55,200 nt of DNA. It comes from a virus (lineage: Duplodnaviria > Heunggongvirae > Uroviricota > Caudoviricetes). Shown piece by piece: positions 9,001-15,000 of the stretch. The stretch lies in the IMG/VR virus record IMGVR_UViG_2923302340_000007. One strand, given 5' to 3'. Within the stretch, counting starts at the first letter, position 1. Every line of letters starts with the position of its first letter. The position numbers are program-made.

Positions 9001-12000
9001 TGATAAAAGCGTATACACCTGGCGTGTGGCTTATAACAACGTTCAGCAGGAACAGCCAGCGCGGGCAGAACTGCCGGAAGAAACCACCACGGCAACAGTC
9101 GCTAAAATTTCGGAGAGCGATTTAACTGCGACGATTGAACAACGTGGACCACAAACGGCGGATGAACTGGCTACGCTGTCCGGTACCACATCCCGCAAAG
9201 TGGCTTCAACGCTGGCAATGGCAATCAGCAAAGGTCGTCTGATTCGTGTAAACCAGAACGGTAAATTTCGTTACTGCATACCGGGTGATAATTTACCAGC
9301 AGAGCCGAAAGTTGAATCGGTAGCGGAAACCGATGGTAAAGCCTTTCCTCAGCCTGCAGGTGTTGCGTTACCAGTACAGGAAGTTGCAACACAGGAAGAT
9401 ATTAAAATAGAAACTGTGGCTGATATTGTGCAATCGTTGCCATCGTTTACTGAAACGCGAGCGGATGACCTGGTTTTACCATCGCTGCATATGGCAAACC
9501 GCGAATTGCGTCGGGCGAAAAATCATGTCCAGAAGTGGGAGCGTGTCTGCGCCGCGCTGCGGGAGCTGAACAAGCACCGGGATATTGTCCGACAGATTGT
9601 CGATTCCTCCAGTCGTATTGTGTCGGAAAAGTGATTGCCGGGGGCGCTTATGGCAAAAGTATTTACACAAGAAGAGCGAGAAAAAATTAAAGGGCAGGTT
9701 GTTGAACTGGTACGCCGGAGTGGACGCGAGACGTTACGGCAACTGGAAGCCAAGACAGGTGCGACAAGATATCTGATGAGCGTTCTCGCCAGAGAGCTGG
9801 TTGCCAGTGGCGATGTATACAACTCTGGTTACGGGTTATTCCCGTCTGAACAGGCTCGTAAGGACTGGCAAAATGCCCGCAAAAAACTCACTAGGGCAAG
9901 GGCGAAGAAACCCGCTGTGGTTGATCCGGGCCTTATCTGGTCATTAGATGACGGAGAAATACGTCGCTACGACAGGCGTCATAATATAATTTGTGGATTT
10001 GCCCCTATATTTCCAGACATCTGTTATCACTTAACTCATTACAGGCCCGCTGCCGCAGATATTCCCGTGGCGAGCGATAACCCAGCGCACTATGCGGATG
10101 CCATTCGTTATAATGCTCGAACGCCTCTGCAAGGTTCTTTGCTGCCGTTAACCCGTCTGGTTTGGGCATGATACTGATGTAGTCACGCTTTATCGTTTTC
10201 ACGAAGCTCTCTGCTATTCCGTTACTCTCCGGACTCCGCACCGCCGTGTTCTTCGGTTCAAGTCCCAACATCCGGGCGAACTGGCGTGTTTCATTAGCCC
10301 GGTAGCATGAACCATTATCCGTCAGCCACTCCACTGGAGACGACGGAAGATCGTTGCCGAAGCGGCGTTCCACCGCTCCCAGCATGACGTCCTGTACTGT
10401 TTCACTGTTGAAGCCGCCAGTAGTCACCGCCCAGTGCAGTGCCTCACGATCACAGCAGTCCAGCGCGAACGTGACACGCAGTCTCTCTCCGTTATCACAG
10501 CAGAACTCGAACCCGTCAGAGCACCATCGCTGATTGCTTTCTTTCACGGCCACTCTGCCTGTATGTGCCCGTTTCGATGGCGGTACAGCAGGTTTTCGCT
10601 CAAGCAACAGCGCATTCTGGCGCATGATCCGGTAAAACACGTTTGGCATTGATCGCAGGCATACCATCAAGTTCTGCCTGTCTGCGAAGCAGCGCCCATA
10701 CCCGACGATAACCATACGTGGGCAGCTCTCCGATAACATGGTGTATACGGAGAAGCACATCCGTATCATCAGTGTGACGACTGCGGCGGCCATCCATCCA
10801 GTCATCGGTTCGTCTGAGAATGACGTGCAACTGCGCACGCGACACCCGGAGACAACGGCTGACTAAGCTTACTCCCCATCCCCGGGCAATAAGGGCGCGT
10901 GCGCTATCCACTTTTTTGCCCGTCCATATTCAACGGCTTCTTTGAGGAGTTCATTTTCCATCGTTTTCTTGCCGAGCAGGCGCTGGAGTTCTTTAATCTG
11001 CTTCATGGCGGCAGCAAGTTCAGAGGCAGGAACAACCTGTTCTCCGGCGGCGACAGCAGTAAGACTTCCTTCCTGGTATTGCTTACGCCAGAGAAATAAC
11101 TGGCTGGCTGCTACACCATGTTGCCGGACAACGAGGGAGACCGTCATCCCCGGTTCAAAGCTCTGCTGAACAATTGCGATCTTTTCCTGTGTGGTACGCC
11201 GTCTGCGTTTCTCCGGCCCTAAGACATCAATCATCTGTTCTCCAATGACTAGTCTAAAAACTAGTATTAAGACTATCACTTATTTAAGTGATACTGGTTG
11301 TCTGGAGATTCAGGGGGCCAGTCTAATTTGTAATGAGTGCCGTAACAGTGAAGTGATGCAGAGAGTTTTGATATTTTGCACAGGAGTAATGATGGAGCAG
11401 TGAAAACAATATGAAATCTTTAGCTTCTGGTATTGTAACAGATGGGAAAAGTGTAGATATATGGAAATTGCATAGCAATAATTCGCAGCATGGATGCTAT
11501 TCGTATGTTGATAAAGTGGTCCCAGTATGCGAGTGTAAGAGTTGAACCAGTTCCAACTAAGAAATTGGGGGGATAATATAGAAGGTGGCTAAGTGAATGT
11601 GGTTATGATTATCTGAAAAACAAATGGAATATTTTAATGGGTCTAAGAACACAGCAATGCACAAATTAGGGGTTATCTTTTACTGTGCTTATTAATATGC
11701 TCAATGACCCATTAGGATTGATGTCAGTTATGTTAGCCAGAGTGATAAAGTGATTATATCTCTGCTGTTATATGCTGAAATGAATAATACTATTCCAGAG
11801 TGCAGCAGCGAAAGTCTCCTGATGATTGAGTTCTGGAAATTGTACGACAGAAAAATTACTATATTTTTCTGCTAAAATATTTTTCAAAACAGATTCTGCT
11901 TTAATGGCTTCAGGATATAAAGATGTGGAGTAATCAAGGCTAAGATCTCCGCTAAGTAAGCATATACTTTTAGTATGCTTTGATTCTGGCATGTCATTTT

Positions 12001-15000
12001 TTATGATCTTGATGATTCTTTCATCCTGCCATAGAAGTGATGGTGCTGAGATATAATAATAGTTAAAACATGAATTGTTTTTTAAACAATCAAGAACAAA
12101 AATAGCACCTAGTGAGTGTCCCCATATACCGAGTTTTGAGGATGTCGGAACAATGGTGCTGACCCAGGGCATGATCTGAGTTAGCAATAACTCTCGGAAA
12201 CTCTGACTTCCTCCACCAGTGAAGTAGATCCATGCTGGTTTGGAGTTATCAATAATAGCATTTTCACCACCAGGAGTGTAATCGTAAGCACGGCGCTGAA
12301 TATTAAGCTTATCCAAAGATTCGTAACTCAGTGTAACTAACACTGGTGGATTGGGTAGTGCATCAATAACAGGAAGAATATCAGAAATGTTATTGTTGGC
12401 GCTATTTCCATCAAGTATATAAAGAGTTGTATTATTTTTTTTAATGTTTTTTGGAGTAAAAACGCATATTTTATATTTTGTGTCATAGTTAATTGAGTTA
12501 AATATGCGTGTTTGACAATGAATGTCCATGTGTTTAGTCATACGTTCTCCCCATGAGCATTAAAGGATTATTAAGATATGCTATGTCACTGATGAACAAT
12601 TTGTTGTATGAATCTAGGTTTTTTATCTACCTCCATTATGATTTAATCGCTGATATATGTTATCAGCAAAGGTACATCGTTACTGTTTTACTTGTCAATA
12701 CATTTGATATTGATTCTCGTTCGCATCGTTTGTTCAGGGATTTGAAGACAGATAACTGCTATGTCAATGAACCAACCCACAGTCCAACGTACTTCAGCAA
12801 AATATGGCGTCGGGATATAGCACCCTGATATTCACCACGGCAAACACACGCCGAGAGTGTTTTTTTATCGTCGTATGTACGTGCACATCTGAATAATGGC
12901 AGGCGAATGTGATAGCCGAAAAGCTCACCGTGCGGTGATCCGGTAGTTTCACCCTGTACGTCTCATAACCCGATGATTGAGACCTTAAGCAAAACAATAA
13001 CAAGGGAGCGTCATTATGACCACTCAAACTGATTTCATATTGGCGATGTAATGGGAAGTTAAGTAGAATGGCTGCGGGTGCTTGAGGCTATCTGCCTCGG
13101 GCATGAACACCAACGGCAGATAGAGAAAAGCCCCAGTTAACATCACGCGTCCGGCAAGACGCTTAACATTAATCTGAGGCTCAATCCATGCTGAACACAT
13201 GTAGGTTAGCCTCTTACGTGCCGAAAGGCAAGGAGAAGCAGGCTATGAAGCAGCAAAAGGCGATGTTAATCGCCCTGATCGTCATCTGTTTAACCATCAT
13301 AGTGACGGCACTGGTAACGAGGAAAGACCTCTGCGAGGTGCGAATCCGAACCGGCCAGACGGAGGTCGCTGTCTTCACAGCTTACGAACCTGAGGAGTAA
13401 GAGACCCGGCGGGGGAGAAATCCCTCGCCACCTCTGATGTGTCAGGCATCCTCAACGCACCCGCACTTAACCCGCTTCGGCGGGTTTTTGTTTTTATTTT
13501 CAACGCGTTTGAAGTTATTGACGGTGTCGGAATAGAATCAAAAATACTTAAGTAGCGCGCAGGGATAAGAGGGATGGTCCCTTAACGGGGAGAGCTAATT
13601 ATCCGGAAGGATTCTGATGATGAACATCGAAGAACTGCGTAAAATTTTTTGTGAAGATGGCCTCTATGCTGTGTGCGTTGAAAATGGAAACATTGTTAGT
13701 CATTACCGCATTCTGTGTTTGCGAAAGAATGGGGCTGCGTTAATTAATTTTGTGGATGCTCGGGTCACGGACGGATTTATCTTGCGCGAAGGTGAGTTTG
13801 TCACTTCATTACAGGCATTGAAAGAGATCGGAATAAAAGCTGGCTTTTCTGCTTTTTCAGAAGAATAAACTCATCTACAATCTTGCGCGGGGCTGAACTC
13901 CCGCTGAGTAACACCGTGCCACCGGAGAAAACCGATGGCACGCAACGCAAAATATTACAATTCTGATAATTCGACCGTTCTTGCCCACACGCACGAGCGG
14001 TATCCTCACGCATTCAGGTCAGACTGGTACCAGCATCCCCCATGCACTGAAGAGCAGGCTGAATGGTTAATTCAGTGTTACCGTAGGCGCGGATGCGAGG
14101 TTAAGAAATCCCTCAGCCTCGATTATCGTCACCGGATAATCTCCGTCAGGCTCCCTTACTCCGAACGGCCACCGCGCCCGTCCCGCATATTCCAGCAACG
14201 GATCTGGAGGTAACGTTAACGTGCGGGTATTACTTAGACCTGTTCTGGTACCGGAACTCGGGCTGGTGATCGTTAAGCCGGGCCGTGAATCCATGCCGGT
14301 ATTCCACAATACCCGGGTACTGGTGGAGCCGGAACCGAAAAGCATGCGTAATCTGCCGTCCGGGGTCGTTCCTGCCGTTCGCCAGCCGCTGGTGGAAGAC
14401 AAAACATTGCTGCCGTTTTTCAGTAACGCACGGGTGATTCGTGCTGCTGGTGGTGCTGGTGCATTGTCTGACTGGCTGTTGCGCCATATTAAATCCTGCC
14501 AGTGGCCACACGGCGATTATCATCACAGCGAAACCGTCATTCACCGTTATGGTACCGGCGCAATGGTGTTGTGCTGGCACTGCGACAACCAGCTGCGTGA
14601 CCAGACATCCGAATCACTTGAGCAACTTGCTCATCAAAACCTGTCAGCATGGATGATTGACGTCATCGGTCACGCAATAAGCGGTACGCAGGAGCGTGAA
14701 TTATCTCTGGCTGAATTATCCTGGTGGGCGGTCCGCAATCAGGTGGCGGACGCGCTACCGGAAGCGGTATTACGTCGTTCGCTGGGGTTGCGTGCGGAAA
14801 AAATCCGCTCAATGTACCGTGAAAGCGACATCGTACCGGGAGAGCAGACCGCTACCAGCATACTGAAGCAGCGCACAAAAGATCTTGCGCCGCTGCCTCA
14901 CGCCCACCAGCAAAACCCGCCACAGGAAAAGACGGTGGTCAGCATTGCCGTTGAGCCGGAGTCACCGGCTCAGTATCTCCAGCGCCAGAAACCACAACGG

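Follow-up and report, generated by a model that had tools for sequence, protein, structure and literature searches.

What does an AT-rich island bearing a minus-strand hydrolase gene contribute to the lambdoid prophage that carries it? The question arises from IMG/VR record IMGVR_UViG_2923302340_000007, whose 55,200 nucleotides are referred to here as the window. A sequence-only reading had pointed to a 257-aa gene on the minus strand containing the motif GIWGHSLG, which is confirmed by an ORF at 11768..12541 (-), the motif corresponding to residues 138-145 (12107-12130, (-)). Based on this ORF and its homologies, the CDS encodes a leaderless serine esterase of the IroE family. No reading longer than 257 aa is possible; an in-frame TAA at 12562-12560, read from the sequence, lies 21 nt 5' of the ATG, and a Shine-Dalgarno GGAG (12547-12550) is found 5 nt from the start codon. 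Public records label the gene merely "alpha/beta hydrolase" or "hypothetical protein", as for the Sakai copy, ECs1077, located in prophage Sp4, and searches of the literature by locus tag or topic retrieved no paper on the protein.

The composition of the island sets it apart from its surroundings. The GC content is 0.349 in the esterase CDS, 0.354 in the 364-bp non-coding tail on its 3' side (11404..11767) and 0.367 in its 5' intergenic region (12542..12795 (-)), for an overall value of 0.354 versus 0.50-0.51 in the flanks. Among all 1427-bp windows in the 55.2 kb (mean 0.516, sd 0.056), the lowest values are those over the island (0.351 at 11351). The initial description of DNA far more AT-rich than its flanks, with ~370 bp of AT-rich non-coding DNA 3' of the gene, thus holds (35.4% GC versus a mean of 51.6%; 364 bp). 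The tail has no match in Rfam (11404-11767) and no terminator-like site or hairpin 3' of the gene, and its small ORFs are not conserved between alleles. The island had been delimited as 11404-12830; its left border stands, but its right end has to be moved, since inter-allele homology stops at 12795. An alignment of three alleles shows that the region from ~12795 to the esterase ATG is kept in each of them. The adjacent 232-bp piece (12796..13027 (+)), between the island and hok/sok, is variable and separate from the island: it has no homology to EDL933 and, among the related loci compared, is found only alongside an esterase allele at least 99% identical. An isrK-like RNA element at 12791-12865 (Rfam 36.5 bits, E 1e-5) falls under the gathering score of 50, and a 91-aa ORF (12553-12828 (+)) has no PHROG or PADLOC match.

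Comparison with two related loci (L001 and L002) places the left border at the end of a DUF977 gene, whose last 80 bases (11324..11403 (+)) are separated from its 5' part (9650-9994) by an IS2. This gene belongs to phrog_142, "Ren-like exclusion protein", and its Sakai version, ECs1076, is named "phage exclusion protein". The IS2 (9995..11323 (-)), recognized by its 99.6% identity with elements whose annotation reads "IS3-like element IS2 family transposase", is flanked by a 5-bp target duplication (ATTTG) and is missing from the 99.9% identical locus of strain JP538 as well as from every other related locus. It is an incidental simple insertion into the DUF977 gene, outside the island. On the other side, the variable slot is bordered by a hok/sok type I toxin-antitoxin locus (13028..13495 (+); Rfam sok 110.7 bits) that is 95-96% identical across related loci and includes the hokD CDS (13245-13400 (+)), an annotation transferred from L001 and also present in L002 and L003. 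Hence, the island does adjoin IS2 on its left and hok/sok on its right, as had been noted, but the former neighbor is incidental.

The slot itself is fixed, extending from DUF977/Ren-like to hok/sok in the 21 related loci examined (21/21), and in other prophages, including those of E. coli 042 and APEC O1, the DUF977-hokD interval is filled by QueH. Moreover, the esterase gene is oriented opposite to the early rightward genes. Deviant GC content, opposing orientation, a fixed slot and the QueH swap together support the earlier view of acquired cargo. A database match with a conserved phage replication or nin-region function, which would have contradicted that view, was sought in profile and database searches and none was found for the esterase. 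The moron architecture is ordinary, and its cargo is a new, uncharacterised relative within a known enzyme family.

Which family this is was established by the profile and structure searches that had been suggested for the subfamily, which led to IroE-type siderophore esterases. A phmmer search of the PDB aligned residues 8-253 of the esterase with residues 12-260 of IroE (2gzr, E 1.8e-25), followed by BES, PfeE, the fungal EstA and EstB, and an IroE-like hydrolase. The AF2 model (pLDDT 91.3, pTM 0.91) predicts an alpha/beta-hydrolase core devoid of a lid domain and superimposable on IroE and PfeE; in Foldseek searches of the PDB, its best 30 matches are all IroE-family siderophore esterases (for 2gzr, TMq 0.79, TMt 0.83, rmsd 2.8), and the E value falls from 1e-14 within the IroE family to ~5e-10 for Fes and other esterases. 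General-purpose profiles are less telling: the Pfam PF00756 "Esterase" match is marginal (23.1 bits for a cutoff of 22), the PHROG match, phrog_8493, is annotated as function unknown, and NCBIfam offers no equivalog. Given an identity of only 20-28% to characterised esterases, none of them allows a confident prediction of the substrate specificity. The protein forms one isolated cluster, as no sequence between 50% and 33% identity occurs among 1.84 billion representatives; its next relatives, 30-33% identical, are found in Pantoea and in a metagenome. The sequence-only reading had called the function unknown; it is not wholly so, the protein being a homologue of the IroE-family siderophore esterases without an export signal.

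The active-site residues that are invariant in the family are kept. D44, R84, D87, G110 and G141 are invariant in 49/49 aligned family members, and H142, S143 and H240 are at least 90% conserved, Ser143 and His240 each occurring in 48/49 of them. The corresponding codons are located, on the minus strand, at 12410-12412 (Asp44), 12290-12292 (Arg84), 12113-12115 (Ser143) and 11822-11824 (His240). In IroE, the Asp of LDGN and the Arg and Asp of R-x-x-D-Y-T-P play a catalytic role. An acidic third catalytic residue, E217, was proposed for PfeE (PMC11852561). The column that contains PfeE E217 and EstB E211 is a Glu in 24/49 members and a serine (S201) in the prophage esterase. The acidic residue is also missing from the clade closest to IroE, in agreement with the Ser189/His287 dyad by which IroE works (PMC10515146). 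No siderophore synthesis, uptake or receptor genes lie by the esterase gene, whose neighbors are DUF977 and hok/sok in all loci, and no linkage with siderophore genes was seen beside the nearest relatives in Pantoea and the metagenome (30-33% identical). The lack of linked siderophore genes and the absence of the PfeE-type acidic residue (S201) both speak against a siderophore role.

The signal-peptide and localisation check, carried out by hydropathy and by the limits of the ORF, revealed no leader. The N-terminus is hydrophilic, with a maximum 12-aa hydropathy of 0.03 within the first 40 residues, whereas 107 of 135 relatives are extended N-terminally by more than 25 aa, with a hydrophobic extension in 97 of these 107. 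Unlike IroE, PfeE and Cee, the esterase has neither a signal peptide nor a membrane anchor and is therefore predicted to be cytoplasmic; it probably acts inside the cell.

The gene is common enough for its conservation to be assessed. It was detected in 470 of 5426 complete E. coli genomes (~9%), mostly STEC and chiefly of the main serogroups O157, O145, O26, O103, O45 and O121; in 466 of the 470, the alignment of the copy spans at least 80% of the CDS, and the 364-bp tail occurs in exactly the same 470 genomes. Between alleles, identity is 91% for the CDS, 76-80% with indels for the tail and, relative to EDL933, 88% for the 5' region. Among three alleles dN/dS is 0.18-0.27, and the catalytic residues are retained in the 10 intact copies checked (10/10). 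Disrupted copies also exist: in O26 strains the gene is interrupted by IS1203, and the L022 copy has a frameshift. Because of this dN/dS, of the retained catalytic residues and of a CDS better conserved than its non-coding flanks, we judge the gene to be functional and under purifying selection. No sequenced free phage carries it. A search of 50,697 phage genome records for IroE-type esterases came up empty save for three very large entries whose phage nature is doubtful and one 2.5-kb fragment, and predicted viral protein structures yielded none either.

Expression of the gene is presumably driven by its own promoter. A consensus scan yielded a candidate sigma-70 promoter (ATAACA, 17 nt, CATAAT; 9/12 matches) at 12635..12663 (-), whose predicted -35 is overlapped by an inverted repeat, CTGATA-acata-TATCAG (12650-12666); each of the three alleles retains both the hexamers and the repeat. 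Farther upstream, 165-183 nt 5' of the ATG and without overlap with the predicted promoter, lies the best match to a Fur box in the whole window, GCGAACGAGAATCAATATC (12706..12724 (-)), with 14/19 positions of the consensus. The common STEC allele, represented by EDL933, has GTAAACGATAATCAATATC (15/19). Shuffling the 5' intergenic region equalled or beat these scores in 45/2000 cases for the window allele and in 6/2000 for the EDL933 allele. Upon contact of EDL933 with HEp-2 cells, Z1341 is up-regulated 2.5-fold along with exbB, chuA/S/T/U/W and fepC (PMC2654852). As the adjacent Z1342 is Hok (PMC2880560), Z1341 is probably the esterase gene. The Fur-box-like site and the up-regulation of Z1341 are two weak hints of iron control; the 14/19 score of the window allele and the position of the site off the predicted promoter count against the former.

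With a probability of roughly 55%, we favor the view that the island is lambdoid lysogenic-conversion cargo, a moron, and that its leaderless cytoplasmic IroE-family esterase cleaves an imported oligo-ester siderophore. In the DUF977-hok/sok slot, the gene runs counter to the early rightward genes and would be transcribed from a promoter of its own. Ser143 of GHSLG would be the nucleophile and His240 the base, with Asp44 and Arg84 in the active site, and the enzyme would most likely hydrolyse, in the cytoplasm, the ester bonds of an imported siderophore such as enterobactin, salmochelin or a related xenosiderophore. We infer that this hydrolysis would free iron or recycle the ligand, as is the case for BesA in Bacillus and for Fes and IroD in E. 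coli, and that it may benefit the lysogen. The siderophore label could, however, reflect only which members of the family were studied. An active IroE-fold esterase whose natural substrate is another ester or lactone of the gut or of the cell would also account for the low identity to characterised members, the isolation of the cluster beyond the 50%-33% gap, the marginal PF00756 match, the missing NCBIfam equivalog, and the absence of siderophore genes near the esterase and its closest relatives. We consider such a substrate unlikely, albeit a serious contender, as the solved structures that match its fold best, 30 of 30, are siderophore esterases and the family-invariant active-site residues are kept; the weak hints of iron regulation point in the same direction.

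The neighborhood calls for two further readings to be weighed. A Ren-like exclusion gene (DUF977/phrog_142) on one side, hok/sok on the other, a variable slot typical of such cargo and an orientation against the lytic operon that fits expression in the lysogen would all suit a gene of phage-phage or phage-host conflict, involved in superinfection exclusion, defence or counter-defence. Yet a search of PADLOC-DB gave no match at E <= 1, the gene stands alone without a partner, we know of no defence role for the IroE fold family, and the slot alternative QueH is a tRNA-modification enzyme rather than a defence gene; a conflict function is thus quite improbable. More improbable still is a hitch-hiking relic without current function, silenced in its AT-rich DNA and simply carried by the prophage. 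E. coli typically silences such AT-rich DNA through H-NS, the copies broken by IS1203 or by the frameshift exist, and IS elements have damaged the prophage of the window as well. Nevertheless, the dN/dS range, the frame and catalytic residues intact in three diverged alleles, the near-complete copies in 466/470 genomes and a CDS more conserved than its non-coding flanks argue against decay.

A bolder version, in which this is the first known phage-borne siderophore esterase, Fur-responsive, cytoplasmic and given to STEC and related E. coli by temperate Sp4/CP-933M-type and CDT-I-type phages, is tentative and, taken as a whole, rather doubtful. On that version, the enzyme would provide an extra route by which enterobactin-type siderophores or foreign oligo-ester ones give up their iron in the host gut or, alternatively, would process siderophore-linked toxins there, and the island would be an unrecognised lysogenic-conversion fitness factor. 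With a place in the IroE family and a predicted cytoplasmic location, what was an anonymous gene of the prophage becomes a testable candidate for a means by which phages tune iron acquisition. Should its activity be confirmed, it would represent a new class of phage cargo, since IroE-type esterases are missing from phage records, apart from the few doubtful exceptions, and from predicted viral structures; should the enzyme prove inactive or redundant with Fes, the locus would be one more moron.

Among known systems, the QueH cassette, a lambdoid moron at the ren/nin boundary, offers the architectural parallel: the slot is identical, the flanks are kept and one gene is swapped in. QueH is unrelated in function to the minus-strand esterase, and its gene, on the + strand, reads in the direction of the early operon. 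Prophages of EHEC, Stx prophages among them, also encode the NanS-p esterases, sialate O-acetylesterases of the SASA family that act on host sialic acids but differ from the IroE-like esterase by their unrelated fold and late-region position; CP-933M/Sp4, which carries the latter, also has a SASA-family esterase gene downstream of Q. Fes and IroD, the cytoplasmic enterobactin and salmochelin esterases of E. coli, match the compartment and reaction predicted for the prophage enzyme, yet they are distant fold matches (E ~1e-9; target-normalised TM ~0.46) of a different subfamily. E. coli already has Fes, and a second cytoplasmic esterase may be redundant, which speaks against a siderophore role.

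Within the fold family, PfeE of Pseudomonas aeruginosa (6gi0/6gi1/6gi2, among the top Foldseek matches, E ~2e-18) and Cee of Campylobacter exploit enterobactin made by other species and are 20-22% identical to the prophage esterase, which lacks the Glu of the Ser-His-Glu triad proposed for PfeE. Both are periplasmic (PMC11852561), unlike the predicted prophage enzyme. IroE, encoded by the salmochelin cluster iroBCDEN, is the best-matching solved structure (2gzr/2gzs; 28% identity over the full length) and shares with the prophage esterase the lidless core, the GHSxG Ser, the catalytic His, the conserved Asp and Arg, and the lack of a "GxxE" acidic residue. IroE is anchored in or exported to the periplasm through a hydrophobic N-terminal segment and belongs to a siderophore cluster, whereas the prophage protein has no leader, is encoded in AT-rich prophage DNA and lacks the "PLGPNIADxGS" segment that follows the IroE leader. 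BesA/BES of Bacillus (2qm0) and the fungal EstB and EstA have an IroE-like fold (Foldseek E 1e-15 to 1e-17) and, lacking a leader, work inside the cell, where they free iron from the ferric siderophores taken up. They are only 17-20% identical, act on bacillibactin or fusarinines in Gram-positive bacteria or fungi, and are chromosomal, in contrast to the phage-borne esterase. We regard the BesA/EstB type as the closest functional analogy for a leaderless member of this family.

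The AT-rich island carries a minus-strand gene (11768..12541) for a protein of 257 aa, the longest possible reading of its ORF, with the GIWGHSLG motif at residues 138-145, as the sequence-only reading had described it. An in-frame TAA lies 21 nt 5' of the ATG, and a Shine-Dalgarno sequence (GGAG) stands 5 nt before it. That reading gave the hydrolase no known function, and the standard libraries were indeed of little help: the match to Pfam PF00756 ('Putative esterase'), at 23.1 bits, is just over the cutoff of 22, NCBIfam returned no match to the protein, and PHROGs yielded only a family of 'unknown function'. 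Searches against solved structures, by contrast, place the protein in the IroE-type siderophore-esterase family. IroE (2gzr) was the best match among solved structures (E = 1.8e-25, residues 8-253 of the window protein), followed by Bacillus BES, Pseudomonas PfeE, fungal EstA/EstB and an 'IroE-like serine hydrolase'. When an AlphaFold2 model built from a 49-sequence alignment (pLDDT 91.3, pTM 0.91) was compared with the PDB using Foldseek, the best 30 matches were all siderophore esterases of the IroE family, with TM 0.79/0.83 against 2gzr; after them the E-values went from 1e-14 to about 5e-10, with Fes, feruloyl esterases and esterase D.

The active site is conserved. Residues D44, R84, D87, G110 and G141 are invariant in the 49-sequence alignment, and conservation reaches 90% or more at H142, S143 and H240. 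S143 and H240 are the counterparts of Ser189/His287, the reported catalytic dyad of IroE (PMC10515146). In PfeE the proposed triad is completed by a Glu (PMC11852561); that column holds Glu in 24 of the 49 relatives and Ser201 in the window protein, and the PfeE-type Glu is also missing from the clade closest to IroE.

IroE, PfeE and Cee are periplasmic (PMC11852561). Among 135 relatives 240 aa or longer, 107 carry an N-terminal extension of more than 25 residues, which is hydrophobic in 97 of those 107; the closest relatives share a 'PLGPNIADxGS' segment behind the leader. Unlike these IroE-type relatives, the window protein starts downstream of both leader and segment. With a hydrophilic N-terminus (12-aa hydropathy of 0.03 at most) and no way of extending the ORF upstream, the protein is predicted from its sequence to be cytoplasmic, which is the outcome of the localisation check that had been proposed.

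Beyond the cluster of the protein itself, a HMMER scan of 1.84 billion cluster representatives recovered only sequences of about 33% identity or less; a word-indexed protein search returned E. coli copies only, plus one relative at 31%. No close relative was present in GTDB species-representative genomes (185,579 species, one genome each), no record of the phage genome collection held a copy above 60% identity, and BFVD gave no close IroE-family match, its best being generic hydrolases (TM about 0.55). From the plasmid collection came true iroE, at 28%, and otherwise a single EDL933 record resembling chromosomal DNA. This record, NZ_CP124741.1 (286,775 bases, labelled as an EDL933 plasmid), carries the prophage esterase gene at 30059-30829 with 89.5% protein identity, which suggests a mis-assigned chromosomal fragment. 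The CDS itself occurs in 470 of 5426 complete E. coli genomes, as a rule in one copy. The window's allele (at least 99% identical) accounts for 12 genomes, and an allele about 91% identical for 458, mostly O157:H7, O145, O26, O103, O45 and O121 STEC. In Sakai the copy is ECs1077 ('hypothetical protein') of prophage Sp4, adjoining ECs1076 ('phage exclusion protein'), and in EDL933 it sits in CP-933M.

The contrast in base composition noticed earlier holds in a scan of the window: GC is 0.349 in the CDS, 0.354 in the 3' stretch and 0.367 in the 5' intergenic region, against 0.50-0.51 in the flanks on either side, and the lowest-GC 1427-bp windows of the 55.2 kb (mean 0.516, sd 0.056) are those over the island. 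The 3' non-coding DNA, put at about 370 bp beforehand, measures 364 bp (11404-11767). The right limit of the proposed span, 11404-12830, has to be moved, as the homology block between alleles stops at 12795 and 12796-13027 is a variable piece separate from the island. Two further small ORFs, one on each intergenic side of the esterase gene, of 44 aa (11411-11545) and 91 aa (12553-12828), were rejected as genes, being unconserved between alleles and devoid of family matches. The tail of 364 bp occurs in precisely the 470 genomes that hold the CDS. Alleles differ by indels in it and share only 76-80% identity; it showed no conserved ORF, Rfam match or terminator, and looks like weakly constrained non-coding DNA travelling with the esterase gene.

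Across two related loci (L001 and L002) and 19 IMG/VR loci the order is invariant: DUF1627, DUF977, the non-coding tail, the opposite-strand esterase gene, its upstream region and hok/sok (hokD at 13245-13400; Rfam sok, 110.7 bits), the last lying to the right of the island as previously stated. In E. coli 042 (L003 3617-4282, + strand), APEC O1 and many others, QueH (epoxyqueuosine reductase) replaces the esterase between DUF977 and hokD, and this position is therefore a swap site for unrelated cargo. Window homology to QueH loci ends inside the 3' end of DUF977 and restarts at 13030. Deviant GC, the fixed slot and the exchange with QueH bear out the view of the gene as acquired cargo. IS2 (9995-11323), correctly located to the left, is 99.6% identical to annotated copies. 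It has its own 5-bp target duplication (ATTTG) inside DUF977, and neither the JP538 locus (99.9% identical) nor any other locus compared contains it, so it was rejected as the island's carrier; judging from these sequences, its proximity is incidental. The DUF977 gene (9650-9994 + 11329-11403; phrog_142 'Ren-like exclusion protein'; Sakai ECs1076) is cut by IS2 some 80 bases short of its stop codon, which leaves the Ren-like protein of this prophage truncated and fused to IS2-derived sequence.

Other elements of the prophage were observed. An isrK-like small-RNA element (12791-12865, +) in the variable piece fits the full Rfam RF01394 model, three stems and U tail, at 36.5 bits (E = 1e-5), short of the gathering score of 50; the 232-bp piece occurs only alongside the esterase allele of at least 99% identity and is missing from EDL933 and Sakai. 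A second, weaker isrK match of 24.9 bits (13409-13490) falls on the hok terminator. Genes for cytolethal distending toxin type I (cdtA, cdtB and cdtC; about 51271-53479) lie beside zinT near the right end. They were named by annotation transfer from a record with 95.7% identity across 78% of a 9.2-kb query, and they make the window a CDT-I-converting lambdoid prophage. Their area is its second lowest-GC stretch (about 0.38 near 53551). In the late region, 523-aa ORFs of equal length and opposite orientation (25906-27477, -; 30246-31817, +), surrounded by smaller length-matched ORFs in mirror-image order, might represent an insertion sequence present twice.

On regulation there are no more than leads. 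All three alleles conserve the 5' intergenic region, which contains a candidate promoter (ATAACA-17-CATAAT, 12663-12635); an inverted repeat, CTGATA-acata-TATCAG, overlaps the promoter's -35. The search for a terminator of the gene gave none. A Fur-box-like site (12706-12724) matches the 19-bp Fur consensus at 14/19, the best match in the whole window, and at 15/19 in the common STEC allele; shuffled intergenic regions reached these scores in 45/2000 and 6/2000 cases, respectively. Z1341, an EDL933 gene reported as up-regulated 2.5-fold on HEp-2 cell contact, shares its list with exbB, fepC and chuA/S/T/U/W (PMC2654852). It is probably the esterase gene, because Z1342 is the Hok-family protein of the same prophage, CP-933M (PMC2880560).

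Placement in the IroE family and the status of cargo have good support; we infer the substrate, the regulation and any benefit to the lysogen. Our best reading, with a probability of roughly 0.55, sees a prophage moron whose product is a cytoplasmic esterase of the IroE family, most likely hydrolysing an imported oligo-ester siderophore, cleavage of which would take place inside the cell. An IroE-family esterase with a non-siderophore substrate is a less likely competitor; no siderophore genes were found around the nearest relatives, which lie on a Pantoea plasmid and on metagenome contigs, a result of no help on substrate. A role in phage conflict, to which the neighbouring gene annotated as Ren-like would point, seems improbable; a PADLOC search with the protein returned no match. 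Still more doubtful is a silent relic. Rare copies are disrupted, by IS1203 in O26 strains or by a frameshift in one compared locus (L022); D44, R84, S143 and H240 are kept in every intact copy checked, and dN/dS is 0.18-0.27 among three alleles (100, 95 and 91% nucleotide identity), which places the gene under purifying selection. No study of it was found by locus tag, accession or topic. Interest in the siderophore-esterase reading would rise if the enzyme were a functional, iron-regulated lysogenic-conversion factor in STEC.

BesA and fungal EstB, which have the same fold, are likewise leaderless, and the predicted cytoplasmic location of the window protein matches theirs. Within a known enzyme family, the protein is a new and divergent member that lacks a leader and is carried by a phage, rather than a new kind of system.
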